NCBI GenBank assembly: GCA_964389705.1
Contig: CAYMEO010000001.1
Coordinates: 2,591 to 66,590 of the forward strand
Reading direction: 5' to 3'
Length of the DNA stretch: 64,000 nucleotides
Source of the DNA: an uncultured Spirochaetia bacterium
GTDB lineage: Bacteria; Desulfobacterota_D; UBA1144; Nemesobacterales; CSP1-2
In this document: piece after piece, positions 3,232 through 48,859 of the stretch
Layout: each line of letters starts with the position of its first letter
Numbering within the stretch: position 1 is the stretch's first letter
Translations under genes and position numbers: made by a program
Notes under the pieces: model-generated
What the model was told of the DNA's origin: nothing
Seen by the model: the letters and a program-made list of their open reading frames with translations, nothing else
Database searches by the model: none

Positions 3232-3248
3232 CCTATTTTTGCCTCTTT

Positions 3249-3324
3249 TGTCATTCTGAACGAAGTGAAGAATCTAGGGTTCAATTTAATTTCACTAGAT
3301 CCTTCGCTGTCGCTCAGGATGACA
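3249..3324. repeat. REP/MITE-like palindrome, copy B
   Basis: TGTCATTCTGAACGAAGTGAAGAATCTAG ... CTAGATCCTTCGCTGTCGCTCAGGATGACA, about 28 bp inverted arms. Confidence 0.7.
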
Positions 3325-3346
3325 GATACTATAGACCAGTCCTAGA

Positions 3347-3404
3347 TGTCATTCTGAGCCGAAGGCGAAGAATCTGAGACCCTTCGCTAACGCTCAGGGT
3401 GACA
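3347..3404. repeat. REP/MITE-like palindrome, copy C
   Basis: TGTCATTCTGAGCCGAAGGCGAAGAATCTGAG / ACCCTTCGCTAACGCTCAGGGTGACA, inverted arms. Confidence 0.7.
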
Positions 3405-3438
3405 AAAACGACCTCTTTGTTCATTGCGTTTATCAAAA

Positions 3439-3723
3439 TCATCCTTCACTCAAATCCTTCCATTCTGGATTTATGGATTCAATCAAAGCTATCTTTTTCC
3501 TTCGCAACCATCCCTTGATTTGCTTCTCCCTTGCAATCGCGGCTTGGACATCATCAGTTTCCTCATAATATACTAGCTTTGTGATGTTGTATTTTTTAGT
3601 GAAGCCATCAATCATTTTGTTTTTATGTTCATAGACGCGTCTCATTAGGTCGTTTGTCACACCTGTATATAATGTCTTTGAACGGTTGGTCATTATGTAA
3701 ACATAATATCGGTTCATTTGCAC
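3439..3723 (-). CDS. GIY-YIG nuclease family protein (YhbQ/UPF0213-like small standalone nuclease domain)
   Basis: 94 aa. Motif YVYIMTNRSKTLYTGVTNDLMRRVYEHKN matches GIY-(10-11)-YTG..R...H.. Flanked on both sides by the REP-like palindromes. Confidence 0.85.
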   Translation of the reverse strand: MQMNRYYVYIMTNRSKTLYTGVTNDLMRRVYEHKNKMIDGFTKKYNITKLVYYEETDDVQAAIAREKQIKGWLRRKKIALIESINPEWKDLSEG

Positions 3724-3743
3724 AATTGCCTTAGTTGGCTATG

Positions 3744-3831
3744 TGTCATTCTGAGCCGAAGCGTAGCGAAGGCGAAGAATCCCGGAGTTTGAGATGCTTC
3801 GCTAGATCCTTCGCTGTTGCTCAGGATGACA
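3744..3831. repeat. REP/MITE-like palindrome, copy D
   Basis: TGTCATTCTGAGCCGAAGCGTAGCGAAGGCGAAGAATCCCGGAG / ...GATCCTTCGCTGTTGCTCAGGATGACA. Confidence 0.7.
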
Positions 3832-3852
3832 GCATTGATTAATAAAATTAAC

Positions 3853-23715: not shown

Positions 23716-24327
23716 ATGGCACACGAATTACCGAAATTGCCCTATAGTTATGACGCACTCGAGCCGCACATTGACGCCCGTACAATGGAGATTCACTATA
23801 CAGGGCATCATCGCACTTACGTAAACAACCTCAACGCGGCCTTAGAAAAGTACCCCGATCTACAGAGCAAGAGCGTTGAGGATCTGCTAAAGAATCTAAA
23901 TGCGATCCCTGAAGACATACGTACTGCTGTTCGTAACAATGGCGGAGGTCATCTTAACCACACCATGTTTTGGCCCATGATGAGTCCAAACGGCGGAGGG
24001 GAGCCTAAAGGCGAGCTTGCAGATGCGATTAATTCTGCTTTTGGCAGTTTCGCGAACTTCAAGGATCAGTTCTCCAAAGCTGCCCTCGGTCGGTTCGGAA
24101 GTGGCTGGGCCTGGCTATGTGTGGATAAAGGCGGTAAGCTGATCATAACTTCGACCCCCAATCAGGATAACCCCATATCCGAAGGCTTAAAGCCTATTCT
24201 CGGTCTTGACGTTTGGGAGCACGCCTACTATCTCAAATACCAAAATCGGCGCGCAGATTATATTTCAGCTTGGTGGAATGTGGTCAACTGGGATCAGATA
24301 GCTAAAAATTACGCGAGTACAAAATAG
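23716..24327 (+). CDS. Fe/Mn superoxide dismutase
   Basis: 203 aa. [32 protein letters not shown]. Metal ligands in the DVWEHAYY region. Confidence 0.95.
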
Positions 24328-31325: not shown

Positions 31326-32174
31326 TCAGGGAATAAGAGCAGCATATTTGTCGAGTAATGGAAGTAAAGTCTCTTTACTGGCTGATGGTAATCCGAAGAT
31401 CACACGCTCAACTCCCGCCTTCTCCAACTCATCAACCGTTCTCTGATCGGGATTAGTATCATAGAAGTAGTAAACGATGGAGACCGAGATTTGCTTAGGA
31501 TCTCGCCCTGCAGCTTCTGCGCGCTGACGCAGTATCGTGATCTTTTCTGACAAGACAGAGGGCTCTATACCAGTAGGTATCCAGCCATCACAAAACTCGA
31601 TAATGCGATCAAAGGTTTTTGGCCCATCGCCTCCCATTAGGATAGGTGGGTGTGGCTTCTGTACAGGTTTGGGATACGACCAGATCTTATCGAAGTTGAC
31701 GAATTCTCCGTGAAATTCTGCCTCCTCCTTGGTCCAAATCTCTTTCATCGCTAAAATACGCTCGCGCAACACACGCCATCTTCTCTTGAAATCGGTGCCA
31801 TGATTTCCCATTTCTTCTGCGTTCCAGCCCCCACCAATACCGAATATAAAACGGCCTCCCGACAACTGGTCTAAGCTAGCGACCTCTTTCGCTGTAATGA
31901 TCGGGTCACGCTCAATAACTAAGCATATTCCAGTTGCAATCCGTAGCCGAATTGTAACTGTAGCAGCCGCAGTGAGTGTAATGAAAGGGTCATAAGTGTG
32001 CCAGTATTCTTTGGGTAGTTCTTTTCCGCCAGGCCAGGGACTGCGGCGGCTCGCCGGGATATGGGTGTGTTCAGGTACCCATAGGGATTCAAAACCGCGC
32101 TCTTCGAGTGCGCGTGCCAGATCGGCAGGGTGCATGGCATATTCTGTTGCAAAGATTGAAGCTCCAAATAACAT
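31326..32174 (-). CDS. LLM-class (luciferase-like) flavin/F420-dependent oxidoreductase
   Basis: 282 aa. MLFGASIFATEYAMHPADLARALEERGFESLWVPEHTHIP, a typical LLM N-terminus. Confidence 0.75.
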   Translation of the reverse strand: MLFGASIFATEYAMHPADLARALEERGFESLWVPEHTHIPASRRSPWPGGKELPKEYWHTYDPFITLTAAATVTIRLRIATGICLVIERDPIITAKEVASLDQLSGGRFIFGIGGGWNAEEMGNHGTDFKRRWRVLRERILAMKEIWTKEEAEFHGEFVNFDKIWSYPKPVQKPHPPILMGGDGPKTFDRIIEFCDGWIPTGIEPSVLSEKITILRQRAEAAGRDPKQISVSIVYYFYDTNPDQRTVDELEKAGVERVIFGLPSASKETLLPLLDKYAALIP

Positions 32175-32267: not shown

Positions 32268-33182
32268 CTACTTCCTCTCATGCCCTCCACCTCTTAGAAT
32301 ATGGAACGCATGAAGCACCCAGGGAAATAGGGCATCCATTGATTCCGAAGCTCCCCTTGAGCTCCCAGGTAGGTTTATAATTATGGTCTTTCCCCTTACC
32401 CCTGCAGTCTCTCTTGATAACATTGCATAAGGGGTTCTTTGGAATCCATAGATCCTCGCAGCCTCAGGGATTCCAGGAACATCCCTTTGTATCACCGTTT
32501 TTGTGGCATCAACCGTTACGTCCCTTGGGTTGAGTCCAGTCCCTCCACTTGTCAGAATTAAATCCACTTTCTCCTCATCGGAGAGCCTTATAAGCTCCCT
32601 TTTTATCATGTCAAAGTCATCCGGAAGGATTCTGTACTCTACAACCTCAACAGGCTCTTTCTTGAGTTTTTCAACTATAATTTTTCCGGACTTATCCTCC
32701 TTTTTGCCCTGAGAGACCGTATCGGAAAGCACAAGGACCGCGGCCTTAAGAGGGGGCTTAAGATGCTGTTTCCACTCGCTCTTCCCGCCTCGTTTTTCAA
32801 TGAGTTTCACTGAGGTAATCTCGAGTGAATCGTCAATCGGCTTTAGCATATCGTATATGGTTAGAGCCGCAATTGAGGCTGCGGTAAGGGCCTCCATCTC
32901 TACACCCGTTTTCCATATAGCCTTTGCCTGAGTTTTAATTACAATCTTTTCTCCGAACTCAAAATCTACAGAGATCCAGTCTAGTGGAACCTGATGGCAA
33001 AATGGAATGAGTTCAGAGGTCTTCTTGGCCCCCAGAATTCCCGCCGCACGCGCCATCTCAATTACATCTCCTTTTGGCACATCCCCACTTTTAACCATAT
33101 CAATCGTCTCTGGCCTTGCTCGGACGGTAGCCTCAGCGGTAGCCTCTCTGAGGGTATCTAATTTTTCGCTTACATCTATCAT
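32268..33182 (-). CDS. moaC: bifunctional molybdenum cofactor biosynthesis protein: MoaC (cyclic pyranopterin monophosphate synthase) fused to a MogA/MoaB-like domain
   Basis: 304 aa. N-terminal about 150 aa is MoaC (PFCHQVPLDWISVDFEF..., EMEALTAASIAALTIYDM). C-terminal about 150 aa is MogA/MoaB-like (AAVLVLSDTVSQG...LILTSGGTGLNPRDVT...INLPGS). Confidence 0.85.
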   Translation of the reverse strand: MIDVSEKLDTLREATAEATVRARPETIDMVKSGDVPKGDVIEMARAAGILGAKKTSELIPFCHQVPLDWISVDFEFGEKIVIKTQAKAIWKTGVEMEALTAASIAALTIYDMLKPIDDSLEITSVKLIEKRGGKSEWKQHLKPPLKAAVLVLSDTVSQGKKEDKSGKIIVEKLKKEPVEVVEYRILPDDFDMIKRELIRLSDEEKVDLILTSGGTGLNPRDVTVDATKTVIQRDVPGIPEAARIYGFQRTPYAMLSRETAGVRGKTIIINLPGSSRGASESMDALFPWVLHAFHILRGGGHERK

Positions 33183-33400
33183 GGTTTTATTCCATCAATG
33201 ATTTATGGTATTGTGCTTTTATTCTATTGCCCATCTATAAATACATTACAGTTTACAGAATTTAGACTAAAAAACTACATTCGAAAGAACCTTGCTTATC
33301 ATACATTCATCTAATAGATAAGAAATGGTTGACATCTCTAAGCACATTTAATCTGGAGGTGTGAGGTATAGCGTATAATTAAGTAGTAGAGCTTCTGTTT

Positions 33401-34348
33401 GTGATGGGAGTTACAAGTGCCCTTATTATACTGGTTAGAGGGAGAAGCGGAGTCAGAATGAAGACTAAGGATCAAGAGAACAACGATAGAGAAGAAAATA
33501 AGGAAAAGGCTATCATAGAAGAGAAGCAGCCCCATATCGTCGAGTTTAGTTATACAGATAAGACCGCCATCGAGCCTGGGACATATCTTGATAGCGGCGG
33601 GGCCCTAATACCTCAGAATCTAATCTCCCGACGACACCATTGGGTTGTCCGTCTTACGCACTGGGTCAACGTGTTGGCGCTTACCATAATGGTGACAAGC
33701 GGACTGAGGATATTCAATGCCTATCCTATGTTTGCCCGTAGGGGAGATACATTCTGCTGTTATCCGTTTGAGGGGATTCGAATTCCGGAGTGGCTCACAT
33801 TTGGCGGATGGCTGGCAGGGGCACGTAATTGGCACTTCGCTATGATGTGGCTCTTGGTACTAAACGGGCTGGTGTATCTGGGGTTTATATACATCCACGG
33901 TGAGTGGCGAGAGTTGGTGCCACGGCGCGGAGACCATCGCGACGCCTGGGAGATGTTCAAGTTCTACATGTTTGTGCGAAAAGAGCACCCAAAACAGAGA
34001 AAGCATAACACACTCCAGAGGCTTACATACTTCGCAATGCCGCTTATCGGTATTGTCGCGGTGCTCACGGGGGTCGCAATCTGGAAGCCGGTGCAGCTTG
34101 GATTTCTCACGAATCTGTTCGGGGGCTATGTATGGGCGCGATACTGGCACTTTATGTCAATGGTCGCGCTGGTGGCATTATCCATTGTGCACATATTTAT
34201 GGTCTTCGCGGTTGATCCCTACTCCCTACCTTCTATAATTACCGGCCGTTATAATGAGAGGTACGCGCCTGAGAGACGTAATGCACGGCCTTTTTATAAC
34301 CTGTTGCCAGTCCGGGGGTCTGCTATTGCCGGGGAGAAAGAAAAATGA
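33401..34348 (+). CDS. membrane b-type cytochrome (Ni/Fe-hydrogenase-type cytochrome b, PF01292-like), partner of the downstream Mo-oxidoreductase
   Basis: 315 aa from the GTG at 33401. The true start may instead be the ATG at 33458 (MKTKDQ..), which has a GGAG RBS. Four predicted TM helices with conserved His (HHWVVRLTHWVNVLALTIMV, WHFAMMWLLV, WHFMSMVAL..HIFMVF). The first 12 codons of the long ORF copy a pilin N-terminus (see findings). Confidence 0.6.
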   Translation: MMGVTSALIILVRGRSGVRMKTKDQENNDREENKEKAIIEEKQPHIVEFSYTDKTAIEPGTYLDSGGALIPQNLISRRHHWVVRLTHWVNVLALTIMVTSGLRIFNAYPMFARRGDTFCCYPFEGIRIPEWLTFGGWLAGARNWHFAMMWLLVLNGLVYLGFIYIHGEWRELVPRRGDHRDAWEMFKFYMFVRKEHPKQRKHNTLQRLTYFAMPLIGIVAVLTGVAIWKPVQLGFLTNLFGGYVWARYWHFMSMVALVALSIVHIFMVFAVDPYSLPSIITGRYNERYAPERRNARPFYNLLPVRGSAIAGEKEK

Positions 34349-35052
34349 AGATAGACCGCCGGAAATTCCTATATCTCAGCGGGGCATCAATATCAGCCGT
34401 GCTCCTTTCTGCATGCGACTCGGAGGGACCGGATTTTACACGTGGGCTCCTTCGCTTTGCGCAAAGGCAGAACGAGAAGGTAGAGCGCGCCCTGTTTCGC
34501 TATAGGGCTATTGATATAGGGAAAGGACACCTGGCTGGAGATGCACTTCCCCAGTACTACATATCGGATACAGTTCCCATATGGGATGAATCTGTATTTG
34601 GCAAGTGGTCACTAGAGATTACCGGCTCTGTCCACCGGACGCTGCGTCTGACACTGGAGGATTTAATGAAGCTTCCAAGCATTACTCATCGGGTAAATCA
34701 TTACTGCGTTGAAGGATGGACAGCGGTAACCGAGTGGACTGGGGTGCGGGTCAGCTATTTGGCTAAGATGGCCGGTGTTCAATCCGATGCGGAGTACGTA
34801 GACTTTAAATCATTCGATAGCGGCTATCATGAGAGTTGGGACATAGAAAGCGCAATGCACCCACAGACTCTTGTGGTCTACGGGCATGAAGGAAGGCTTC
34901 TTGAGCCAGGCTACGGAGCACCAGCGCGTCTTCACTCACCAATAAAGCTGGGATATAAGAGCACTAAGTATCTCACACAAATCGTGTTTTTGCCATATAG
35001 AACTGGTGGATATTGGAGCGATCAAGGCTATGATTGGTATGCGGGAACATGA
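34345..35052 (+). CDS. molybdopterin-dependent oxidoreductase, sulfite-oxidase family (small YedY/MsrP-like lipoprotein)
   Basis: 235 aa. Lipoprotein/Tat-like leader [24 protein letters not shown]. Moco-binding core [21 protein letters not shown]...[22 protein letters not shown]. 4-nt overlap with the cytochrome b gene. Confidence 0.8.
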
Positions 35053-36182
35053 TAGTAAAACAGCAGAGATTCCCTTATATAATGTGTTTTATGGGAGTGT
35101 ATGAATATGCCGGCAATTTTCAAGGTTTTATTTTTACAGTTATCCTATTATTTATGACAATGCAATCTAGCTCATATTCGGATACAAGGCTCGAAAAAGC
35201 CACATTTGCTGGGGGATGCTTCTGGTGTATGGTATCGCCTTTTGAAAAACTAGAGGGCGTCGTTGAGGTAATAGCGGGTTATACAGGAGGGCATAAAAAG
35301 AACCCGACTTATGAAGAGGTCTCAGCCGGAGGAACGGGGCACGTAGAGGCCGTTGAGGTCACTTATGATCCGTCTAAGATAACCTATTTACAGCTTCTTG
35401 AGGTATTCTGGAGGCAAATAGACCCGACCGATTCGGGCGGTCAATTCGTTGATAGGGGCGCGCAGTACAGAAGCATTATTTTTTATCACAATGATGAACA
35501 AAAAGCCCTGGCGGAGAGATCGAAAGAGGTGCTGGATAGATCGGGGATATATAAAAAGCCAATTGTTACGGAAATCGTTCCGGCTTCTGAATTTTATAAA
35601 GCGGAGGAATATCACCAGGATTTTTATAGGAAAAATCCTATAAGATACAAATATTACAGATACTTTTCGGGCCGTGATCAATACATTAAAAAGATATGGG
35701 GTGATGATATGGGAAATAAATATCCTCAAGACAGTAATGAGGCATATAAAAAACCGACTAAAGAGGAGCTCAGAAAGAGATTAACTCCATTGCAATATGC
35801 AGTTACACAGGAAGGGGGTACAGAGAGGCCATTTAACAATGAGTATTGGGACAATCACAGGGATGGAATATATGTTGATATAGTTTCAGGAGAGCCTCTT
35901 TTTAGCTCCCTTGATAAGTTTGATTCCGGAACCGGATGGCCGAGTTTTACGAAACCCCTTGAGCCAGAAAACATAGTAGAAAAGATAGATAAGAGCTTCT
36001 TTATGACAAGAACGGAGGTTAGGAGTAAACACGGAGATTCTCATCTCGGTCATGTCTTTGATGATGGACCCAAACCGACCGGGCTTCGATATTGTATAAA
36101 CTCCGCTGCCCTTCGTTTTATTCCAAAAGAGGATTTAGAAAAAGAGGGATACGGCAAGTATAAGAAGCTCTTTGAGAAATAA
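35034..36182 (+). CDS. msrAB: bifunctional peptide methionine sulfoxide reductase MsrA/MsrB
   Basis: 382 aa from the TTG at 35034; the start is uncertain (internal ATGs at 35049, 35082 and 35154). MsrA active site FAGGCFWC. C-terminal MsrB region ([47 protein letters not shown]). Confidence 0.9.
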
Positions 36183-36211
36183 CAAAATATATATACCCAA
36201 CGAGAGCCTAT

Positions 36212-37198
36212 ATGAACCACTTAGTGGATAAATTCGGAAGGACGGTTACAAAACTCAGGGTCTCTGTAACAGACAGATGCAATATGCGGTGCCTCTACTG
36301 TATGCCCGAAGAGGGTCTTAAGTGGACACCAAGAGAAGAGGTTTTGACATTTGAGGAGATTACGCGTGTCGTGAGATTATCCTCAGAACTGGGAGTAAGG
36401 AAAATCCGCATTACAGGGGGAGAGCCGCTTCTGAGAGAAGGTGTGGAAGAGCTGATCTATATCCTCTCCCAGGTGCCGGGGATTCAATCCGTCTCAATGA
36501 CTACAAATGGGTATTTCTTAAGGGAAAGAGCCGAAGCCCTGGCTCAAGCGGGGCTTCGCGGGATAAATATCAGCCTTGATTCCCTGAGGCCTGAGAAATT
36601 TAAGAAGATAATAAGGCGCAATTACTTCGACCGTGTCATTGAGGGAATTGATGCAGCAGAGCGTGCAGGCCTCTATCCGATAAAGATAAATGCAGTTGTT
36701 ATAAGGGGCTATAACGATGATGAAATAGAGGACTTTGCTCGGCTCTCCCTTACGAGGCCTTATAAGATCAGATTTATAGAGTTTATGCCCATTGATGGCC
36801 GAGGGATGTGGAAGAGGGATTTGGTTGTAACAAAGGCCGAGATTCTCGAAAGGGTAAATCGCGTCTCTGAGATAGTTGAGGTTGTAAACGGCGACGGAGG
36901 CCCTGCAAGAAATTACAGGTTTAAGAACGGCAATGGAGAAATAGGGGTTATAGCCTCTGTGTCTCAGCCGTTTTGCGGCAGTTGTAATAGAATCAGGCTT
37001 ACGGCTGACGGAAAGATTATGACATGCCTCTTTGCGCTTGATGAGCATGATGTCAAAGGGCTTCTAAGGGGCAATGGCACGGATGATGAGATTAAGGATT
37101 TTTTGATAAAGGCTGTAGGCACAAAATGGGCTGGGCATCTTATAAACCGTCCGGGTTTTATCAAACCTAAGAGGCCAATGTCTGCCATCGGAGGGTAG
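36212..37198 (+). CDS. moaA: GTP 3',8-cyclase MoaA (radical SAM)
   Basis: 328 aa. VTDRCNMRCLYCMPEEG radical-SAM CxxxCxxC. C-terminal Fe-S cluster (FCGSCNRIRLTADGKIMTCLF). Confidence 0.95.
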   Translation: MNHLVDKFGRTVTKLRVSVTDRCNMRCLYCMPEEGLKWTPREEVLTFEEITRVVRLSSELGVRKIRITGGEPLLREGVEELIYILSQVPGIQSVSMTTNGYFLRERAEALAQAGLRGINISLDSLRPEKFKKIIRRNYFDRVIEGIDAAERAGLYPIKINAVVIRGYNDDEIEDFARLSLTRPYKIRFIEFMPIDGRGMWKRDLVVTKAEILERVNRVSEIVEVVNGDGGPARNYRFKNGNGEIGVIASVSQPFCGSCNRIRLTADGKIMTCLFALDEHDVKGLLRGNGTDDEIKDFLIKAVGTKWAGHLINRPGFIKPKRPMSAIGG

Positions 37199-39002: not shown

Positions 39003-40961
39003 GTGGCATCTAATTTTAATGGACTGCGCGTAGTGGCGTTTGAGAGCCGCCGCGCTAGTGAGATAGAGAAACTAATCGCATATTACGGTGGTGTGCCAAA
39101 GGTTGCGCCCTCTATGCGTGAGGTGCCTTTATCTGAGTCAACTGAGGCACTAGAATTTGCGGAGAATCTGTTTAATGAGAGGATTGACGTTGTCATTTTT
39201 CTCACCGGTATAGGCACCCGCATCCTATCAGATGTTATTGCAACGCGGTATACTCGCGAGCGATTTACAGAGGCCTTAAAGCGCATCACTATTGTCTCCC
39301 GCGGTCCCAAACCGGTTGCGGTGCTGAGGGAGATGGGGCTAAAACCCGATATACTCATTCCTGAGCCAAATACCTGGCGAGACATACTCTCTACCCTAAG
39401 CAGTGCTCTTTCGCTTCAGGGCATTAGGGTTGCCGTGCAGGAATACGGCATCTCTAATCCAGAATTAATAGAGGGATTACGCAAATACGGTGCACTCGTC
39501 ACAGTAGTCCCTGTCTATCAATGGGCATTGCCAGAAGACATTACGCCGCTTCGCAATACGATCGGTGCAATAATAAGGGGGGAGGCAGACATTGCCCTTT
39601 TTACAAGCTCACAGCAGGTACGTCACCTAATTCAGGTTGCCTCTGCTGATGGATTAGAGCAGCCCCTTCGGGAGGCGTTCAAGCAGATCGCTATAGGTTC
39701 TATAGGGCCGACTACAACAGAGGCACTGCATGAGATGGGGCTTAGGGTAGACTATGAGCCTGACAGCCCCAAGATGGGCAATCTTGTGCGTGAGATGGCA
39801 AGGCGTGGGGCGGATCTTTTACGCAAGAAGCGGGTTGCATATTTAAATGGCGTAGACACAACCCAATGGCGGCGTATTGATATGGTCTGGACAACTGATG
39901 CAGTTTGTTGCCCTTCTGCTTCTGTCCAATCCGTATTTATGAAGGCCTGCCGTCGTGAGGCAGTTGATTATACCCCGATCTGGCTTATGCGGCAGGCAGG
40001 GCGGTTCATTCGCGAGTACCGTGAACTGCGTGCCAAAGTACCGTTCTTAGAACTCTGCAAGACCCCGGAACTCGTCTCTGAGGTGACGCTAATGGCGGTA
40101 GACCGCCTGGGGGTAGATGCCGCTATAATATTTGCGGATATTCTTCTTATCCTTGAACCTATGGGTATAGAATTGGAATTCTCGAGAGGAGACGGTCCGG
40201 TTATAAAAAAGCCCATTCGTACGGGTATAGCAGTGGATGCACTAAGGGACTTTGAGCCGGACGCATTGGGCTTTGTCTATGATGCTGTTCAAATTACTCG
40301 GCGTGCACTTGACTCAAATCTAGCGCTCATCGGATTCGCTGGTGCTCCATTTACAGTTGCATCTTATATAATTGAGGGCGGTGGCTCGCGCAATTATGAA
40401 AACACAAAGAGGCTTATGTACTTTGATTCGGGTGCGTGGCATGCATTAATGGAGCGGCTGTCTCAGGCAACTGCCGCTTATCTCAATAGGCAGATTGCTG
40501 CCGGTGCGGATGCGGTGCAGGTATTCGATAGCTGGGTGGGGTGTCTTTCACCCGATGACTATCGCGAGTTTGTGTTGCCCCATATGCGTCGTCTTATTCG
40601 AGGTCTTACGCCAGGCGTGCCCGTCATACACTTCGGTACCGATACGGCTGCATTGCTTGAGTTGATGAAAGAGGCAGGGGGCGACGTGATTGGGCTTGAC
40701 TGGCGCGTGGACTTGAAGGAGGCATGGGAGCGGCTTGGCTATGACATAGCCGTGCAGGGCAATCTCGACCCGGCTGTGCTTCTAGCTCCGCCATCCGAAA
40801 TTTCCCGTCGTGCCGTAAGAATTTTGGAAAAGGCCGAGGGGCGCCCTGGTCACATATTCAACCTAGGACACGGCGTGCTTCCGGGTACACCGGTTGACCA
40901 CGTGCTTGCTCTTGTGGATGCGGTTCATGAATACACAATCTCGCGTGAAGATAAACGATAA
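39003..40961 (+). CDS. hemE: fusion protein: uroporphyrinogen-III synthase (HemD) N-terminal domain plus uroporphyrinogen decarboxylase (HemE) C-terminal domain
   Basis: 652 aa, GTG start. Residues 1 to about 270 are HemD-like (two alpha/beta half-domains, LRVVAFESRRASEIEKLI...). Residues about 300-652 are URO-D (PIWLMRQAGRF, ...IFADILLILEPMG..., GHIFNLGHGVLPGTP). Confidence 0.85.
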   Translation: MASNFNGLRVVAFESRRASEIEKLIAYYGGVPKVAPSMREVPLSESTEALEFAENLFNERIDVVIFLTGIGTRILSDVIATRYTRERFTEALKRITIVSRGPKPVAVLREMGLKPDILIPEPNTWRDILSTLSSALSLQGIRVAVQEYGISNPELIEGLRKYGALVTVVPVYQWALPEDITPLRNTIGAIIRGEADIALFTSSQQVRHLIQVASADGLEQPLREAFKQIAIGSIGPTTTEALHEMGLRVDYEPDSPKMGNLVREMARRGADLLRKKRVAYLNGVDTTQWRRIDMVWTTDAVCCPSASVQSVFMKACRREAVDYTPIWLMRQAGRFIREYRELRAKVPFLELCKTPELVSEVTLMAVDRLGVDAAIIFADILLILEPMGIELEFSRGDGPVIKKPIRTGIAVDALRDFEPDALGFVYDAVQITRRALDSNLALIGFAGAPFTVASYIIEGGGSRNYENTKRLMYFDSGAWHALMERLSQATAAYLNRQIAAGADAVQVFDSWVGCLSPDDYREFVLPHMRRLIRGLTPGVPVIHFGTDTAALLELMKEAGGDVIGLDWRVDLKEAWERLGYDIAVQGNLDPAVLLAPPSEISRRAVRILEKAEGRPGHIFNLGHGVLPGTPVDHVLALVDAVHEYTISREDKR

Positions 40962-41575: not shown

Positions 41576-44500
41576 CTATAAAATCTGCTCCCAGAAGAGG
41601 GTCTGGGTTCTCGTTGGAAACGGAGGGAGCTGCCATACCAGGAACTGTGAGCCCCCGGTGGTTGAGTTACCAGTAAAGGCTACAGTCAAGACAACAGAGC
41701 CACGGGCACCAAATGTAAGCTGTGCGGGTGTTGGCATCCCCTGTGCCACGGTTCTTCCGGCAGCCGCATTTTGTTGAGTTGAACTTCCCTGAATAAGGTT
41801 TTTTGCTCCGGGTATTCGTACTAAAGCGGGCTGTCCCGACAAATAATCCAGGGCAAATATGTTTCCTACTCCGGTGCTTTGCGCACAGGCATTGGTCAGA
41901 TTGGTGTTTGGGGCAAATGTTGTAAATACAAGCACCCTGTTTATTACTACAGGGGAGCCAAATCCCTTTTCACCGCTTGGGGTAGAGACATTATTAGGGA
42001 AATTAACTATAAACTGCCCTTGATTATTAACGGTGCTACCGCCTGAGGTTGTAAATTGATTAGATACCCCAGACTGGGCTACGAGGTTAATAATTTGACC
42101 CGAGGTGAAATTAGATTCAGTCTGCATTGGAACCGTTACTGCTGTACCACCGGCGAGAAACGCAGGGATATAACCGTCAATGAAGTTGTAGAGCTTTCCA
42201 AACTCTGCGGTACCGGTTGAGGAATTGGTGGTAAGGCTCGGATCCCTTCTGTCTCCGGTTATAAATATTACATGCCTCTGACCGAGGTCATCCAGTACGG
42301 CAGTCGGGGCAAAGAATATCGGTTGCCTATTGGTGGTTGGAACGTTATTGGCCTTGGTGCACTCTGTAGAGGAGTTTGCACAAAAGGCTATGTCGCCTGT
42401 CCAAACGCTTTTGCCCGTACTGGGGTTTATAGTGGTTATATTTGCAGTTCCGCGAAGGCCGGTTTTAGTAACGTCGTTGCCGGCATCGAATATAGGCTGT
42501 GAGACATCAAATCTCCAGAGCCTTCCACATGTATCGCCCTCATAGACTACATCTATAAACCCGTCTCCATTTAAATCAAACGCACCAACTTTACTCGGCA
42601 TATCGCAAATCATCCTAGAGTCGGTCACAGTGGCGTTTGGTGCACTCGCTGTATCATGGGCGAACTTGAATATTATGTTTCCCGTTGCTATATCTATGAC
42701 ATAAAAGGCATTACCTAAACTGACACCGCTGCTTGGGTTAAAGTTCTCAGGTGGTATAGTAGGGTCGGCTCCGCCTCCCACAAACATGACCCATCTGTCT
42801 ACTATAATGGCATTGCCGTTTTTATCCTTTGTGTTCATCCTTACCCTTCCGATTGTTGGATCGGACCACACGTTTCCAAAATTCTTATCAAATACAGTCC
42901 AAAGGTGCCTTGGGTAATCGGGGCCGTTGCTCAGTTTCTTCAGATTGGCTTGGGTTCTATCTACATTGGTAACATCAAGGGCTATATAAGCCCCGCCGCC
43001 GTTTCTAAAACCCGAAAGAAGGACTGAGTGCCATTCCTTTCCACATGGGTCTATAGTACCGTCGGTATCCGGATTACTTGTGCAGCTGGCATTATTTTGA
43101 ATCCCATTCTGATAGCCGTCAATCCAGACATCAGCAACGAGGGGCGAGCCATCAAAAAATGACCTCTCCGGTTGATTATTATTCATAACAAATGTCTTAA
43201 AATCACCGAACCGATAATCGGGCGGATTAATATTCGGAAGTACGGGTGGAGGCGACGGGGAAGGCGACGGTGCAGGTGAGGTAAGTGTGTCTGGGAGAAA
43301 TGTAGGAGGAGCAAATCCAAAGAGTTCTGTCCCATCCCCTGCACTAAAGAATGGGAGTGATTCGTTCTTCAGTGTAAATGGGTTCTTTTGCGGATTGGTT
43401 GCGGAGGCATTTACAAAGTCTCCGGCATTAAACCCATGTAGGAATCCGTCGTTGGCTCCTACATAAACAACCCCGGTCCTGTTTTGGAAGGCTCCGGCAA
43501 AGTTTTGAAAACCGACATCAAAGAATAGGGGGGAAGGTGAACCGACTACTACCGGGGTTGAGTGGAATATATCACCGAGACGGACAGAACATGTATCGAG
43601 GCTGCCGGTACCTGTTTGGGGATCAGGACAGTTTGTACCCATCGTACCCATAGGGTCTCCTACTGGCAGAACCTGGGTATCACCGCTCATGAAATCTACA
43701 ATCTCATCCCGGATACAGTTTTTAACACAGGTCTTACAGGTCGAACTTGTTACATCACTACAACTGGATGTGCAATCATCTATACCGCCCGTTGAGCAAA
43801 AATCGGGTATAGGACTAGCTACATCGCTATCTGTAATGCCAAAGAGTGAGGGCGGAAGGCTATTGTCAAATTTAGCCCGCTCGCCTCTGTATCTTATGCT
43901 GACAACATTACTCCCGCTTTTTACGGTATCAACCGTGCTTGAATTCGTTATATCTACACTAAAGAGATTTCGGGGGTTTTGAGTGAGGTTCCTTTCAGCT
44001 AAGCTCTTCCCAGCCTCCCAGTAGAAGTTCTGAGCGAAGTCATTTAATGAGCCATTAGCGTTAAATATAGGGTTCTGTTGTGGTGTATTATCAACGATTA
44101 TCTTGGCGCCTATGTTATTAGGGTCATCTATAAATGCGTAGAGTGCCAGCCTTCCCTGCCAGATACGCGATGTAGTAATGGGTGTGAGTATAGATAAAAA
44201 TACCCTGTCTCTAAGGGCCACGCTCGTTGATGACTGCGGTGCGGTAGGCGCAACCCCAGAGGTGCTAAATGTTTTAATAAACTGGAGTATGGTTTGGAGG
44301 GCGGTAGAGAGTTCTTCGGCGTTATTTGCAAAGAAGGCAAACCCATCAAGTGGTTGTGTGGATGTAAACGGTGCACCTGTGTCAAAGAAATTGTTATCAA
44401 ATATATTTGCCCCTTGAAATGTACAAACACCGCTTTCATTGGGGGTCTTACAGCCCTGGAGTTGCGCGCTGGAGGGGCTTGTATCAATACCGAGGGCCAT

Positions 44501-46198
44501 AGCAAGGTTCTTAAAAACCTGAAAGGCGCTTCCGCTCGGAATCATACTATTTATGTCCACAGTCCCAATAGTGGTTCCATCGGGAGCGGTGTGTTTTATT
44601 ATTCCCGTCGTACTGGTTCCTCCTGCGAGGGCCATAGCATTGAGCGTTCTCTTTGCCGTGTCGTCATGGATCCCAATTCCGATTACAAATGTAAGAATCT
44701 CTTTTTTAAAGGTCTGACCGCCGTTTGACGCCGGGTTTCTGGCATAATAGGTTCTGAGATTGCTTACAGCCTGTACTGAGCTCCTTCTGTTTGCATCGGT
44801 TGTTACACTACCACTGCAAGAGCCGCTGGTTGCACTGCATTGACCCGAGCACGTATCCTCTCCGTCTGTTATCACAATCACAAATTCGGGTCTGCAGGAG
44901 ATCGCAGGGTCGGTTTGAAGCTCTACCTTATAGACTCCAAGGGCATCGTTGTTTATGACATTTCCGCCTCCGGAGCCATTGCCGTTGTTATCATCAAGGC
45001 CCAGGGCATAGGCTAATGGTGTACCGCCGTTGGACTGACTTCCCCTAAAGAATTTCCAAAAGTTCTGAAGGTCGGATTGGCTTTGACCTGCGAATCCGCC
45101 CTGAGCAATTTGAAATGTGTTATTACTTGTACAACCGTTCCAACTTGCCCCTGAGTATGTCATGGCGCGGAGTCTTAAACCTAGAATTGAGGCATCATTA
45201 TTTGTAAGCTCATCAATTATGCCTTCTGCTGGGCTTGTAGGGAGCTTAAAATTGGTTCCCGTTCCCTGTACCTGTGCACTAACATCCCTAAATGGGGTCT
45301 GCATCCAGTTTTGACAGTTGATACTCGTACTTACCCCATCAAAGAGTCTACTTGGATCACTACATGTCTTTGAGGCGAGGGAATTATCAGCATCTAGGAG
45401 GCTATAGATCACATTGAGGGCCATATCGAGGCGTGAACTACCGAGTTGCGGCACACCCGTGCAGTTGGGCGTTCCACCTGAGCACGCAGAGGCTTTATTT
45501 GTAGTAATAGATTGTGAGGTCTGCATACAGGTTTTGAATCTGGTGTAGTCATTGCTCGTATTGCAAGCGGGGTTTGTATCACCACTGAGTTGACAATTTG
45601 CAGCGGTCATACACTGTGTAAGACCGGCTGCCGCCTCTACTGCTGCTGCCGCATCTTGCATCTTAGTTGAGGTGTTACAATTTGTCAGTGCATATGATAT
45701 TTGGGTTGATTGAGTACAACCCGACCCGCCGCAAATCGTCTGAAGTGTCGGACACATGTTGAAACTGGATTTTTTTTGTTGAATACAATTCAACTGATTA
45801 TTGAGCTCGCTTTGTGTGCTGCATATACCGTCTGCACAATTTTGAAAACCGCATACATCCGTACCCGCCGCGTTCTCAATGCAGTGCGAGGATTTTATGT
45901 ATTGGTCAGATGTTCCGTCAAGGAAGAAGTTCTCACAGGTTGAGATAACATTTGTATTGTCCCAGTTGCCTATTTCAGTGCCCCCGTAGTTTAGTGCCAT
46001 AGAGCCCGAAAGGTCGAGGATCATAAGAACGTCTGGCTGCCCGCCTACGAATTGAGAGATCAGTATATTTTGGTCCTCTACTTGGTTTTGGATGATGGGG
46101 TTTCCATGGGCGCCGGTCACAAAAAGCAGTGCAGCGAAAACCAAGGCTATTTTCAATTTGTAGATTCTCTCTTTCAAGAAACCTGGCTTAATAAACAT
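41576..46198 (-). CDS. pilY1: PilY1/PilC-like type IV pilus tip-associated adhesin with N-terminal vWA domain and C-terminal PilY1 beta-propeller/Ca-binding region
   Basis: About 1540 aa. The track ORF extends to 46228, but the likely start is the Met at 46198 (MFIKPGFLKERIYKLKIALVFAALLFVTGAHG signal peptide). vWA MIDAS motif DLSGSM. Extremely Cys-rich central region. Pro/Ser linker PAPSPSPSPPP. C-terminal EF-hand-like loop DLNGDGFIDVVYEGD, typical of PilY1. Confidence 0.75.
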   Translation of the reverse strand: MFIKPGFLKERIYKLKIALVFAALLFVTGAHGNPIIQNQVEDQNILISQFVGGQPDVLMILDLSGSMALNYGGTEIGNWDNTNVISTCENFFLDGTSDQYIKSSHCIENAAGTDVCGFQNCADGICSTQSELNNQLNCIQQKKSSFNMCPTLQTICGGSGCTQSTQISYALTNCNTSTKMQDAAAAVEAAAGLTQCMTAANCQLSGDTNPACNTSNDYTRFKTCMQTSQSITTNKASACSGGTPNCTGVPQLGSSRLDMALNVIYSLLDADNSLASKTCSDPSRLFDGVSTSINCQNWMQTPFRDVSAQVQGTGTNFKLPTSPAEGIIDELTNNDASILGLRLRAMTYSGASWNGCTSNNTFQIAQGGFAGQSQSDLQNFWKFFRGSQSNGGTPLAYALGLDDNNGNGSGGGNVINNDALGVYKVELQTDPAISCRPEFVIVITDGEDTCSGQCSATSGSCSGSVTTDANRRSSVQAVSNLRTYYARNPASNGGQTFKKEILTFVIGIGIHDDTAKRTLNAMALAGGTSTTGIIKHTAPDGTTIGTVDINSMIPSGSAFQVFKNLAMALGIDTSPSSAQLQGCKTPNESGVCTFQGANIFDNNFFDTGAPFTSTQPLDGFAFFANNAEELSTALQTILQFIKTFSTSGVAPTAPQSSTSVALRDRVFLSILTPITTSRIWQGRLALYAFIDDPNNIGAKIIVDNTPQQNPIFNANGSLNDFAQNFYWEAGKSLAERNLTQNPRNLFSVDITNSSTVDTVKSGSNVVSIRYRGERAKFDNSLPPSLFGITDSDVASPIPDFCSTGGIDDCTSSCSDVTSSTCKTCVKNCIRDEIVDFMSGDTQVLPVGDPMGTMGTNCPDPQTGTGSLDTCSVRLGDIFHSTPVVVGSPSPLFFDVGFQNFAGAFQNRTGVVYVGANDGFLHGFNAGDFVNASATNPQKNPFTLKNESLPFFSAGDGTELFGFAPPTFLPDTLTSPAPSPSPSPPPVLPNINPPDYRFGDFKTFVMNNNQPERSFFDGSPLVADVWIDGYQNGIQNNASCTSNPDTDGTIDPCGKEWHSVLLSGFRNGGGAYIALDVTNVDRTQANLKKLSNGPDYPRHLWTVFDKNFGNVWSDPTIGRVRMNTKDKNGNAIIVDRWVMFVGGGADPTIPPENFNPSSGVSLGNAFYVIDIATGNIIFKFAHDTASAPNATVTDSRMICDMPSKVGAFDLNGDGFIDVVYEGDTCGRLWRFDVSQPIFDAGNDVTKTGLRGTANITTINPSTGKSVWTGDIAFCANSSTECTKANNVPTTNRQPIFFAPTAVLDDLGQRHVIFITGDRRDPSLTTNSSTGTAEFGKLYNFIDGYIPAFLAGGTAVTVPMQTESNFTSGQIINLVAQSGVSNQFTTSGGSTVNNQGQFIVNFPNNVSTPSGEKGFGSPVVINRVLVFTTFAPNTNLTNACAQSTGVGNIFALDYLSGQPALVRIPGAKNLIQGSSTQQNAAAGRTVAQGMPTPAQLTFGARGSVVLTVAFTGNSTTGGSQFLVWQLPPFPTRTQTLFWEQIL

Positions 46199-46745
46199 TG
46201 CTTGCACCTCCGGGAATAAAGCTTTCAAAACCTGCGGATAGCTCCGTTCCTGTGTTTATATTCGGATTTGTATCATTCATGTCTTTATCCCTAGCATCCT
46301 TTCCAGTAACCAGGAAACTCGTTGGAACCAGTGCGGCACCCCCAATACCACCGGAGGGAAGACTCACATGCTTCAGGGGCCTTCCTAAAATTTTTGTCGG
46401 CGGTGGGACCTGTAAGAAGGGAACGGGGCCATTGGAGCTACTATAGTCTCTCGGACCAGTTCTGCATTGTGCCCCGTTTGGAAGTGTGATTTGTATGCCT
46501 GTGGTAATGCCACTTTGGAGTTGAAAATAGAGCGTTTCAATCCCCACTACTTCGAATTGCCTTCTTGCCTCATCAATGCACCTTTCGGCAGCAAGAAAGG
46601 CCTCCTGTCCTTGCTTATAATTAGACATCATCTGGAAATCCACATTTGATGTGAAAGAAACTGAGATTGCCAGTATAGAGATTATAAGGAGTATTATTAA
46701 GGCTAGGATTAGGGCGACTCCGTTCTCTTTCTTCAGATTTTTCAT
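46188..46745 (-). CDS. pilX: PilX-like minor pilin (pilus assembly protein PilX N-terminal domain)
   Basis: 185 aa. ENGVALILALIILLIISILAISVSF... hydrophobic N-terminus followed by AFLAAERCIDEA, the PilX pattern. Confidence 0.65.
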   Translation of the reverse strand: MKNLKKENGVALILALIILLIISILAISVSFTSNVDFQMMSNYKQGQEAFLAAERCIDEARRQFEVVGIETLYFQLQSGITTGIQITLPNGAQCRTGPRDYSSSNGPVPFLQVPPPTKILGRPLKHVSLPSGGIGGAALVPTSFLVTGKDARDKDMNDTNPNINTGTELSAGFESFIPGGASNVY

Positions 46746-46783
46746 CCTTAGATCTCCTTCTTTATGCGCATCAAATACTACAA

Positions 46784-48064
46784 TTATCCAAAATCCTCTC
46801 TTGCCATGTTTCTTATATAAACAGTTGTTGAAAAAACCTTATATATGTATCCAGCTCCTAATGATGGAAACGTATCTGATGTAGTGGATGTTGTTCTTTG
46901 AGGCACATCGCCAATCCCCGTGATTGTCTGTACAGGGATGCGGAGTCCCTCTGTTAAAAGGGGTTTGACTCTAGATCTTACTAGTAGGTAGATTTCGACA
47001 CTCCTTATATCCTTTTGTCTGCCTAAAAGAGAGGGATCGGCAGAGAAATCCGAAAACATTCTTTTGGTAGTATCCTTACAGCTACTTGAGGAGCAGACGC
47101 CGACCTTTGTAACTCCGCCATCTGTATCTTGGAGGTTAAAGACGAATTGAAGGTCAACTATACCTGGGGCATCGCTACCACCGGCAATGGGTTGAAAGCT
47201 GCCTGCCCCATTTTGCTGCATTTCAAGCTGCCTTGAGGTTGTATCTACACTAAAGGTCCTTGACCGTACTATAGTCATCTCAGATGTCTGGGAGGCAATG
47301 GTTGGTATAAAGCCGTAGTTTACTCCATTTACTGTCACGCCGTTTATAAAACTAGACATGCTGGAAAAACTGCTCACTGGAAAATTCTCTTCTACAATTG
47401 AACTAACATTATCTGCAATTGTAGCCTGCTGATTAGTTGTATCAACTGTGCTTACACTCAGTATAACCGAGCATTCAGTGCATGACTTTGGCTGTGTTCC
47501 ACAGTTTATATTAGGGTCTGGACTACAGAGATTGATCCTTGACCTGAAACCTAGTAGGTCTCCGGCTTGTAATAATGGTATTGTTAATGAAGTCCCATCA
47601 GGGTTCTTAAACCAATCTGATGGAAGCTGTAATTTCAAGGGCGGCCCTGGACTAACAATTGACACAACACCTGGAACCGATGGGAATCTCGGGGCTAGTG
47701 GGTTAGCAGGCTGGCCGCTGTTCTCCCCCCTTGTTATATCCCATGTGAATATCATAAGACAGTCAGGTGGAGAGTTTACTGTCCCGGGTTTGGTTGTATT
47801 TGTTGTAGTACAGCCAGTTGATGAGCTGCCTCCATTTACAAAAATCAGTGAAAATGGCTTTCCTTGCCTTGCTGTAGCGTTTCTAATTTCTGATGCAATG
47901 TAGTTAAGGGCGGCTCTTCCTGTCTGGTCTAGGTCTATATCTTCTTGTGTAAAGGTAGATTGCTTTTGCTGCTGTATAAATGCTATGGTCAACCCCGTGA
48001 GGATGATAGTAAAAATAGCCGTTGCGATTAAAAGCTCAACCATTGTAAAGCCTCTGCTGTTCAT
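46784..48064 (-). CDS. pilW: PilW-like minor pilin
   Basis: 426 aa. Prepilin motif RGFTMVELLIATAIFTIIL. Large variable C-terminal domain. Confidence 0.7.
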   Translation of the reverse strand: MNSRGFTMVELLIATAIFTIILTGLTIAFIQQQKQSTFTQEDIDLDQTGRAALNYIASEIRNATARQGKPFSLIFVNGGSSSTGCTTTNTTKPGTVNSPPDCLMIFTWDITRGENSGQPANPLAPRFPSVPGVVSIVSPGPPLKLQLPSDWFKNPDGTSLTIPLLQAGDLLGFRSRINLCSPDPNINCGTQPKSCTECSVILSVSTVDTTNQQATIADNVSSIVEENFPVSSFSSMSSFINGVTVNGVNYGFIPTIASQTSEMTIVRSRTFSVDTTSRQLEMQQNGAGSFQPIAGGSDAPGIVDLQFVFNLQDTDGGVTKVGVCSSSSCKDTTKRMFSDFSADPSLLGRQKDIRSVEIYLLVRSRVKPLLTEGLRIPVQTITGIGDVPQRTTSTTSDTFPSLGAGYIYKVFSTTVYIRNMAREDFG

Positions 48065-48097
48065 AAAAAGCCTCCTTTACTCTCTCAAATGAAATAA

Positions 48098-48859
48098 CTA
48101 AGGGATATGTGGAATGCGAACTTGAGACCAACCCGGAATATAGGTGGAATATGTAGTATCTATATGAGCCGTGACCTGATATGCCTGACTTGCAAGGGAA
48201 TCCTTTATACTTAGGCTGGTTAAACCGGTTTTATTAAATTGGGCCTGCGTTTTTACAGCATATATAATCGAAACTGTGACTATGTTTGGAACAACCGTGG
48301 TATCCACATTTGTTGTTGCTTGCTTGATCATAAATAGGGCTGGCCTCTTTGCATTAGTAATGTTAGTAAAATCAGTCTGGCACTGTGTTTTTGAGGTTGT
48401 AAAATTCAGATTCTTGGGATCAAAGTTCTGAATATCTATAGCCGCACAGGTGGTTTCAGTAGTGCCACTGGTTGTAGTGGGCGTTATAGCCTGCAGTGGA
48501 TCGCACGGGCACGCACTACAGACTGAGTTAGTTGAACCACTACAATAGCTAAGGTCGTAACATTGGGTGGTGTAGATTTGTGTAGGGTAAGTGGGTGAAC
48601 TAGAACACTTGGGATATCCCCCTTGTGCGATTGCATATGCCGTAGAATTAAGTAGATACCGGCGCTTTACCTCCGATATATCTCTATCACTTACAAATTG
48701 AATTATATTTGTTGCGGTTGTCCCGTTCTCCGCATATTGTTTTTGTCTGAGCGAAAGGGCTTCCATCTCGGCTAGACTCAAGAAACCGATGGCCATTATA
48801 AGTGTGGCAACGAGGATTTCTATAAGGGTAAATCCGTCTCGGTTTTTAATTCTCGACAT
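48098..48859 (-). CDS. pilV: PilV-like minor pilin (type IV pilus modification protein)
   Basis: 253 aa. Prepilin motif DGFTLIEILVATLIMAIGFLSLAEM. Cys-rich C-terminal region. Confidence 0.7.
   Translation of the reverse strand: MSRIKNRDGFTLIEILVATLIMAIGFLSLAEMEALSLRQKQYAENGTTATNIIQFVSDRDISEVKRRYLLNSTAYAIAQGGYPKCSSSPTYPTQIYTTQCYDLSYCSGSTNSVCSACPCDPLQAITPTTTSGTTETTCAAIDIQNFDPKNLNFTTSKTQCQTDFTNITNAKRPALFMIKQATTNVDTTVVPNIVTVSIIYAVKTQAQFNKTGLTSLSIKDSLASQAYQVTAHIDTTYSTYIPGWSQVRIPHIP

Follow-up and report, generated by a model that had tools for sequence, protein, structure and literature searches.

The cell envelope contains neither NADPH nor thioredoxin, yet methionine (Met) oxidised there must be repaired, and the textbook answer to this requirement is the MsrPQ system, represented in Escherichia coli by YedYZ. 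Further systems have been described in uropathogenic E. coli (UPEC) CFT073, where c3566/c3567 belong to an ‘Msr system’ controlled by OrhK/OrhR, mutants are peroxide-sensitive and the operon includes the Met-rich c3568 (PMC8550376); in Brucella melitensis, where bcrXQP is placed under BcrS, a sigma factor of the extracytoplasmic function (ECF) type, and the anti-sigma factor AbcS, is induced by hypochlorous acid (HOCl) and is needed for HOCl resistance (PMC8315932); and in Azospira suillum, where the Mo enzyme of the SigF/NrsF–YedY1Z1–MrpX system re-reduces a sacrificial Met-rich peptide (PMC4436054). The present analysis concerns a locus in a 64-kb stretch of contig CAYMEO010000001.1 (the window, meaning the whole stretch at its full length), in which genes were assigned from an open reading frame (ORF) listing and hidden Markov model (HMM) scans against Pfam and NCBIfam, and where genes for a membrane cytochrome b and a molybdenum (Mo) protein of the sulfite oxidase (SUOX) fold stand together with msrAB and with genes for molybdenum cofactor (Moco) biosynthesis. 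With a probability put at about 0.6, this locus is an envelope Met-oxidation repair operon encoding a cytochrome-b-fed periplasmic Met-sulfoxide (Met-O) reductase, a new member of the UPEC/Brucella-type system.

On the minus strand, a moaC/moaB (mogA-like) fusion occupies positions 32268-33182 (Pfam MoaC 1.8e-50 and MoCF_biosynth 1.5e-30; NCBIfam NF002947 399 bits, cutoff 285) and is divergent from four plus-strand genes, encoding a di-heme cytochrome b of FdnI/HyaC-like type (33458-34348, 296 aa; PF01292 E 1.1e-25), an MsrP-like SUOX-fold Mo subunit (34345-35052, 235 aa; PF00174 1.5e-31), an MsrA-MsrB fusion predicted to be exported (35049-36182, start uncertain; PMSR 1.9e-65 and SelR 1.6e-49) and the GTP 3',8-cyclase MoaA (36212-37198; TIGR02666 385.5 bits, cutoff 284). 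The original prediction, made from the letters of the sequence, had named these same genes at these positions, and the ORF listing and HMM scans bear it out; of the two overlaps that it reported, that of 4 nt is real, the cytochrome b stop and the Mo gene start sharing an ATGA, and that of 19 nt is an artefact of the longest-ORF start at TTG 35034 of msrAB. The moaA gene starts 29 nt past the msrAB stop and is the final gene of the putative operon, and no plus-strand terminator-like site was found between 33458 and 37198. The closest public sequence, a contig of a Candidatus Dadabacteria metagenome-assembled genome (L067; PSLL01000007.1), has an identical layout with proteins 93-98% identical, which places the window in that lineage, and the arrangement of the genes is not due to chance.

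The UPEC system has the order seen in the window, with a PF01292 cytochrome b followed by a SUOX subunit of ~250 aa that is a twin-arginine translocation (Tat) lipoprotein bearing the CVEGW motif. Confirmed in CFT073 as c3564-c3568 upstream of hlyCABD, it is found on E. coli plasmids and UPEC chromosomes, where the genes of a two-component system precede those for a cytochrome b/b6-domain protein, for a molybdopterin-dependent oxidoreductase and for a small protein rich in Met. Identities of 30-33% relate the window Mo protein to C3567 of CFT073 and to the paralogue on plasmids (E 8e-36 and 5e-40), both nearer to it than MsrP is (phmmer E 3e-15 against YedY), and the similarity of C3567 itself to MsrP is also weaker (E 1e-16); between the window cytochrome b and the c3566-type protein of E. 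coli, which likewise matches the HyaC and FdnI models, identity is 36% (E 1e-36). A C-terminal GGYWxDxGYxW motif occurs in most members and in the E. coli plasmid copy, and is lacking from the annotated CFT073 C3567 and from a Sphingomonas protein. The two loci differ in that the UPEC one encodes an MXKDX-like peptide rich in Met downstream, lies beside a two-component regulator and reads through into hlyCABD, whereas the window has neither Met-rich peptide nor adjacent regulator, and instead carries exported MsrAB and Moco genes. C3566 was called an MsrQ homologue by its authors (PMC8550376), but the C3566-type cytochrome has no significant similarity to MsrQ (E 1.1) and the designation is not backed by sequence. 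In RefSeq, CFT073 c3566 (L088, 3476-4074) is marked as a frameshifted pseudogene, yet a deletion phenotype has been reported (PMC8550376); of 5426 complete E. coli genomes, 73 carry an intact paralogous operon, 73% identical, on plasmids of IncF type.

For Brucella, the supplement of the published study annotates bcrXQP as an MXKDX peptide, a cytochrome b/b6-domain protein and a molybdopterin oxidoreductase (PMC8315932), a layout equal to that of a Rhizobium phaseoli plasmid locus (L084) in which the pair (Mo protein 37% identical) comes after the gene for an MXKDX repeat protein rich in Met and stands opposite an ECF sigma/NrsF pair; the assignment of BcrXQP to the family is by synteny and product names. 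An Ochrobactrum locus considered as a bridge to Brucella carried a TetR-variant neighbourhood, not the sigma/MXKDX variant, and was rejected. The Met-rich peptide and adjacent sigma/NrsF-type pair of Brucella set it apart from the window, as does the lack of MsrAB or Moco genes in its operon, whereas its ECF control parallels the ECF-like promoter described below. The logic of the Azospira YedY1Z1-MrpX system, in which a Mo reductase and membrane cytochrome are combined with a Met-rich peptide and an ECF sigma factor, is shared with the relatives L081, L091 and L084; the Azospira genes are yedY/yedZ by annotation, and the window lacks the peptide. With E. coli MsrPQ itself, which reduces protein-bound Met-R-O and Met-S-O, the locus has in common a Tat-exported periplasmic SUOX-fold enzyme with Cys-ligated Mo-molybdopterin and a CVE(A/G)W motif, together with a membrane heme-b partner, and MsrP is the best match of the Mo subunit among solved structures and NCBIfam models. 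It differs in having a PF01292 cytochrome b with four His as the partner in place of the ferric-reductase-domain MsrQ, in the reversed gene order, and in a Mo subunit that is ~100 aa shorter through internal and C-terminal deletions, lipid-anchored and under the MsrP cutoff.

Assignment of the cytochrome b to PF01292 and not to the YedZ type, as first proposed, is upheld by the Pfam match and by a lack of significant similarity to E. coli MsrQ (BLASTP E 0.45), and its best NCBIfam models are HyaC (74.5 bits) and FdnI (39.4 bits), both under their equivalog cutoffs. The longest ORF runs from GTG 33401 to 34348 (PF01292 E 1e-26), but the start is most likely ATG 33458, the conserved position that gives 296 aa as in L067, in which the stretch upstream of it is missing. 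Numbered from this ATG, H68, H126, H231 and H245 are invariant in nine diverse sequences from Dadabacteria, Gemmatimonadota, Rhizobium, Agrobacterium, Sphingomonas and E. coli, with one His in predicted transmembrane helix (TM) 1, one in TM2 and two in TM4 14 residues apart, an arrangement which is the FdnI bis-heme pattern. A double-Cys motif, G(D/E)xFCCYPFEG, lies in the predicted periplasmic TM1-TM2 loop (window ~33770-33790) and is kept in Dadabacteria and Gemmatimonadota and lacking in proteobacterial members. In the sister Dadabacteria L082 (271-1452) and L091 (4057-5223), the cytochrome b bears an N-terminal lipoyl/biotinyl-carrier domain (PF00364, 67 and 58 bits) with a hairpin-tip Lys (KTNK/KTGK) followed by a charged linker; this domain is missing from the window protein, and a lipoyl domain joined to a membrane cytochrome b is not known to have been reported before.

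The Mo subunit is probably a Tat lipoprotein of MsrP-like type and not a sulfite dehydrogenase, a reading for which sequence and model agree. A Tat signal (RRKFL) at its N-terminus is followed by a lipobox (LLSAC-D), and R5, R6 and C24 are invariant in the window's own clade A1 and at least 90% conserved across 80 more diverse members; regular-expression counts of the Tat and lipobox motifs over 150 representatives were uninformative owing to many fragments. The Mo-ligand Cys121 sits in CVEGW and aligns with YedY Cys102, the CVE(G/A)W motif being common to MsrP, and CVEGW, the ligand Cys and the cofactor-binding GAPxR...KxGYK are invariant across 80 sequences. HMM classification, proposed earlier as a check, places MsrP (NF003767, 91.5 bits) over SoxC (51.6) and SorA (37.3); a search of the Protein Data Bank with the family profile gave E. 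coli YedY/MsrP at 1.4e-21 versus SorA at 3.7e-9; and hhalign to E. coli MsrP was near full length (99.15% probability, E 4e-19), the profile alignment giving MsrP an 18-residue insertion and ~55 extra C-terminal residues, in keeping with the smaller size anticipated for this subunit (235 aa, ~100 aa shorter than MsrP). An AlphaFold2 model based on an 80-sequence diverse alignment (mean predicted local distance difference test, pLDDT, 81.8) had as its top Foldseek match YedY (1xdy/1xdq) at a root-mean-square deviation of ~2 Å and 31% identity; an earlier one, built on 21 close sequences, was of low quality (pLDDT 55.7) and was discarded. The SUOX-fold Moco domain and Cys ligand are shared with SorA, SorT, SoxC and sulfite oxidase, to which similarity is far weaker, and the features that mark sulfite dehydrogenases are missing: the SorA C-S-G-N-x-R loop (C-x-G-N-x-R), which holds the sulfite-binding Arg, aligns to a gap where the Mo subunit reads HYCVEGWT, the sole Pfam domain match is PF00174 over residues 86-224 of 235, with no Moco dimerisation domain, and neither a cytochrome c gene (ORF listing of the operon) nor a heme b5 partner is present. 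Membership of a sulfite dehydrogenase clade with conserved sulfite-binding residues, named in the original prediction as part of what would count against it, is thus not what the alignments indicate, YedY being closest.

Strong evidence from sequence comparison points to the cytochrome b and Mo subunit forming one functional unit. A scan of one genome per species returned 440 loci with close relatives, and among the best 80 of the 440, mostly from Gemmatimonadota, the cytochrome b gene lies immediately upstream of the Mo gene in 79, the exception being at a contig end; the same order is found in E. coli, Rhizobium, Agrobacterium and Sphingomonas. Single-chain fusions, with an N-terminal PF01292 and a C-terminal PF00174 domain, occur in the metagenomic proteins P0366, P0409, P0464 and P0487 and are strong evidence that the two subunits act as a complex. 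A protein search of 1.84 billion cluster representatives gave 541 clusters (50% identity) at E ≤ 1e-30, these fusions being among its best hits, and the family numbers ~6,500 proteins at E ≤ 1e-5 among 90%-identity cluster representatives. Its members are spread over Gemmatimonadota, Chloroflexota, Dadabacteria and Proteobacteria, those of UPEC islands and IncF plasmids among them.

Exported MsrAB enzymes receiving electrons through thioredoxin and CcdA-DsbD are exemplified by Neisseria PilB and streptococcal MsrAB2, with which the window protein has in common an MsrA-MsrB fusion and a predicted N-terminal export signal. The msrAB gene of L067 has its ATG 46 nt beyond the Mo stop, and its product carries the signal peptide MNISAIFKILFLSVILFMTMQSISYS in front of the MsrA domain. 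Compared with L067, the window lacks 1 nt between 35136 and 35137, a deletion that puts the equivalent ATG (35101) out of the reading frame. Upstream, the frame of MsrA stays open as far as ATG 35049, which shares an ATGA with the Mo stop, and ATG 35079 and 35088 are further candidate starts beside the TTG of the longest ORF. The deletion replaces the n-region of the signal peptide and retains its hydrophobic core (~35127-35165), and the same altered N-terminus in an independent protein cluster (P0243) makes this probably a real allele and not a sequencing error. Of the 120 MsrAB homologues closest to it, 106 have a hydrophobic N-terminal signal sequence before GGCFWC, ending in an A-x-A-like manner as in MLKIIILFSFLLLLIMQTRIYA ahead of DTK; the window MsrAB is therefore predicted to be an exported enzyme, and the cytoplasmic type initially ascribed to it has to be abandoned. 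Unlike PilB and MsrAB2, the window has no operon-linked thioredoxin or CcdA/DsbD, whereas the relatives L091, L081 and L092 encode a secreted thioredoxin-like protein adjoining; the reductant of MsrAB in the window's lineage is not encoded nearby. HMM scans of the 64 kb found no CcdA/DsbD, ECF sigma factor or operon-linked thioredoxin and, in the rest of the window, no further Moco genes, and searches for a Met-rich ORF, a thioredoxin-like protein, an ECF sigma or anti-sigma factor, CcdA, cytochrome c peroxidase or a lipoyl domain in the window gave none; a DUF255/YyaL-type thioredoxin-domain protein is encoded at 60284-62497, outside the operon.

The divergent moaC/B and cytochrome b–Mo–msrAB–moaA–phoH layout is also found in L067, L094/95 and L096/97, and in extended form in L091, so that the five-gene arrangement occurs in at least four further Dadabacteria lineages; in those sharing it, the Mo protein is about 85-94% identical to that of the window and MsrAB is 78-83% identical to that of L067. 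The moaA gene has the same position in all Dadabacteria loci with the Mo pair beside msrAB, as does moaC/moaB in L067, L091, L094/95 and L096/97. A Dadabacteria-related locus, L092, carries ECF sigma, anti-sigma, thioredoxin-like, MsrAB and PhoH genes and lacks both the Mo pair and moaA, which suggests that the Mo pair and the Moco genes have been gained or lost jointly beside msrAB; in L082 (Mo protein 90% identical), a cytochrome c peroxidase gene lies downstream in place of msrAB. Beyond Dadabacteria the five-gene conservation that the original prediction proposed to check mostly fails: genes clustered around the pair in Gemmatimonadota are topA, trmFO, xerC, hslV, argF and aroK, all housekeeping, and so offer no functional hint. 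In L066 (Gemmatimonadales), msrB overlaps the cytochrome b start by 4 nt, and linkage to MsrAB and Moco genes is limited to several Dadabacteria lineages, plus this one Gemmatimonadales MsrB case.

A Met-related context for the pair is found in a range of relatives. In L081 (1119-1328 and 4717-4971), L082 (3-119) and L091 (3697-3945), the closest non-identical relatives of the window, and in the Gemmatimonadota locus L013 (8780-9103), the pair has secreted Met-rich peptides as neighbours (Met content 18-32%, with E and K also abundant); in each of these loci, and in L084, such a peptide is encoded immediately ahead of the cytochrome b gene, and one also belongs to the operon in L086 and L088. 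The peptides of L081, L091, L082 and L013 have no match to the MXKDX model TIGR02953, and so appear to be a Met-rich sink that is analogous and arose independently. On a Sphingomonas plasmid, the pair follows thioredoxin, CcdA and DUF1223 genes and faces a sigma/DUF1109 pair, and in L081 an ECF sigma gene without a partner lies near the pair. Taken as gene content, this context of Met-rich peptides, ECF sigma/NrsF, thioredoxin/CcdA and MsrB supports a putative envelope Met-O-reducing role. The alternative envelope Met-O chain suggested in the original prediction therefore gains from the relatives and from the published genetics (PMC8550376, PMC8315932), and loses its claim to be a new type of system, as homologues have been studied genetically in UPEC and Brucella.

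Regulation by an ECF sigma factor is also suggested by the 275 bp that separate moaC/B from the cytochrome b gene. At 33287-33314 on the plus strand, upstream of the cytochrome b gene, lies a promoter-like element, GAACCTT-N16-TCTAA(T), which resembles the ECF promoters of RpoE type (GGAACTT-N16-TCnaA). In the window, L067, L094/95 and L096/97 the GAACCTT and TCTAAT hexamers are conserved and the 16-nt spacer diverges, a promoter signature; GAACCTT-N16-TCTAA occurs once in the window against 0.07 expected, and a similar G(A/C)A(A/C)CT(T/A)-N16-TCTAA precedes the thioredoxin-like gene beside the ECF sigma gene in L092 and L081. The element is thus a candidate ECF-type promoter, in a window that holds no regulator gene. 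Just upstream of it, a second block, TACAGTTTACAGAATTTAGACTAAAAA (33247-33274, ~30 nt; no strand assigned), containing a TACAG-TT-TACAG direct repeat, is near-invariant in four Dadabacteria lineages, with one position differing in L094, amid intergenic DNA that diverges between the lineages, and is possibly a regulator site. Rfam gave no match in the whole window at gathering thresholds nor in the intergenic region at E ≤ 1, so a Moco riboswitch was not detected.

Under the envelope-repair interpretation, oxidative stress in the envelope would lead an ECF sigma factor to transcribe cytochrome b, Mo, msrAB and moaA as one unit; the di-heme cytochrome b in the inner membrane would take electrons, most likely from the quinol pool, and pass them through its hemes to the lipid-anchored Mo-molybdopterin enzyme on the periplasmic face, which would reduce Met-O, and perhaps other sulfoxides, on periplasmic and envelope proteins. 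Exported MsrAB would reduce Met-O as well, by thiol chemistry, and MoaA and MoaC/B would secure the supply of cofactor; as the operon faces moaC/moaB, cofactor supply and both kinds of Met-O reductase could be expressed together. Several observations weigh against this interpretation. The window itself has no gene for a Met-rich peptide, thioredoxin, CcdA or ECF sigma factor, and the pair lies among housekeeping genes in 77 of 79 Gemmatimonadota loci; the Mo subunit scores well under the curated MsrP equivalog cutoff (91.5 versus 207 bits), is shorter by ~100 aa and is predicted to be lipid-anchored; a generic sigma-70 promoter and terminator scan did not rise above shuffled background; no published enzymology was found for any C3566/C3567–BcrQP-type member; and c3566 of CFT073 carries the RefSeq frameshift mark. 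PF01292 cytochromes, moreover, usually accept electrons from periplasmic dehydrogenases, as in FdnI and HyaC, and the flow could run in reverse.

This last point is the starting position for a very unlikely account in which the Mo protein is an oxidase or dehydrogenase, of sulfite or another reduced compound, delivering electrons through the di-heme cytochrome b to quinone in the manner of FdnI/HyaC. PF01292 relatives of known function do accept electrons from periplasmic dehydrogenases, HyaC and FdnI are the top NCBIfam models of the cytochrome, and the SUOX fold family includes sulfite dehydrogenases, but the gap at the sulfite loop, the missing dimerisation domain and cytochrome c partner, SorA and SoxC scores far under that of MsrP, and contexts of oxidative stress and not of sulfur oxidation all speak against it. 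As a reductase, the pair might still have a broader remit, acting on S-oxides and N-oxides such as dimethyl sulfoxide (DMSO) and trimethylamine N-oxide (TMAO), or on oxyanions, in the service of detoxification or respiration; Met-O would be a side substrate at best, and the MsrAB neighbourhood would reflect a shared stress regulon and not a shared substrate. Met-rich peptides encoded just ahead of the pair in no fewer than five independent lineages, in addition to E. coli c3568, the MsrB or MsrAB genes adjoining it in some loci, and the HOCl and peroxide phenotypes of homologues (PMC8315932, PMC8550376) make this unlikely, even though weak reduction of DMSO and TMAO was the first activity described for E. 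coli YedY (PMC13488963, PMC6211008), the Joint Genome Institute (JGI) name for the family is ‘DMSO/TMAO reductase YedYZ catalytic subunit’, and most loci lack a Met-related context.

It is distinctly unlikely that the adjacency is uninformative, the cytochrome b–Mo pair and cofactor genes having merely been inserted beside msrAB in a compact genome: the layout, the tight spacing and the upstream element are kept in at least five lineages, the 4-nt overlap with MsrB in Gemmatimonadales is an independent linkage, and the Met-rich peptides, thioredoxin and peroxidase that stand in as substitute neighbours are oxidative-stress functions too. To be set against these are L092, which has sigma, anti-sigma, thioredoxin, MsrAB and PhoH genes without the Mo pair or moaA, L082, with its cytochrome c peroxidase instead of msrAB, and the majority of family members, which have no Msr neighbour. 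Scarcely credible is a non-catalytic role as a pterin-binding sensor akin to PruR, a SUOX-fold periplasmic protein (PMC11194511) whose structures are among the Foldseek matches (E 2e-7 to 2e-5), given the invariant Mo-ligand Cys and GAPxR...KxGYK, the obligate heme partner, the flanking Moco genes and an identity of 14-19% to PruR versus 31% to YedY. The lipoyl/biotinyl-carrier domain on the cytoplasmic N-terminus of the cytochrome in L082 and L091, combined with FdnI-like membrane-spanning hemes, makes a cytoplasmic electron source conceivable; on this highly speculative and improbable view, the cytochrome b would be a transmembrane wire drawing cytoplasmic electrons, a quinone-independent route for periplasmic Met-O repair which, with no thioredoxin or CcdA near MsrAB in the window's lineage, might serve the exported MsrAB too. 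Were it true, it would constitute a distinct Met-O repair pathway so far conflated with MsrPQ.

If the locus is the envelope Met-oxidation repair operon proposed here, it belongs to a second, very widespread solution to envelope Met-O repair beside MsrPQ, whose cytochrome was taken as an MsrQ homologue in both published genetic studies, an equation that the sequences do not support. What is new is the occurrence of the system in Dadabacteria and Gemmatimonadota, the assignment by sequence of its cytochrome to the FdnI/HyaC-type di-heme b class and not to MsrQ, and the Dadabacteria packaging with exported MsrAB and Moco genes; the Dadabacteria operon would be unusually direct genomic evidence for the role of the module, and offers a compact gene set for reconstitution. 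The literature searched gave nothing relevant on Dadabacteria Msr or on a molybdopterin oxidoreductase with cytochrome b561.

Next to the operon, an F420-dependent LLM-class oxidoreductase gene (31326-32174; TIGR03619, 283 bits) is intact in the window, has matches in L067 to just two short fragments and is missing at that position in L096/L097, and from this comparison appears to be a variable gene adjoining the operon. The remaining window genes are housekeeping by HMM scans of the 64 kb. Also encoded are type I restriction-modification S and M subunits (1936-5610), a TrmD fused to a second S-adenosylmethionine-dependent RNA methyltransferase domain (PF09936; 430 aa, 11079-12371), an Fe/Mn superoxide dismutase (23716-24327), a fusion of HemD (uroporphyrinogen-III synthase) with UroD (652 aa, 39003-40961), and a PilY1-like protein of 1550 aa, after which come PilX, PilW and minor-pilin genes (41576-48859).

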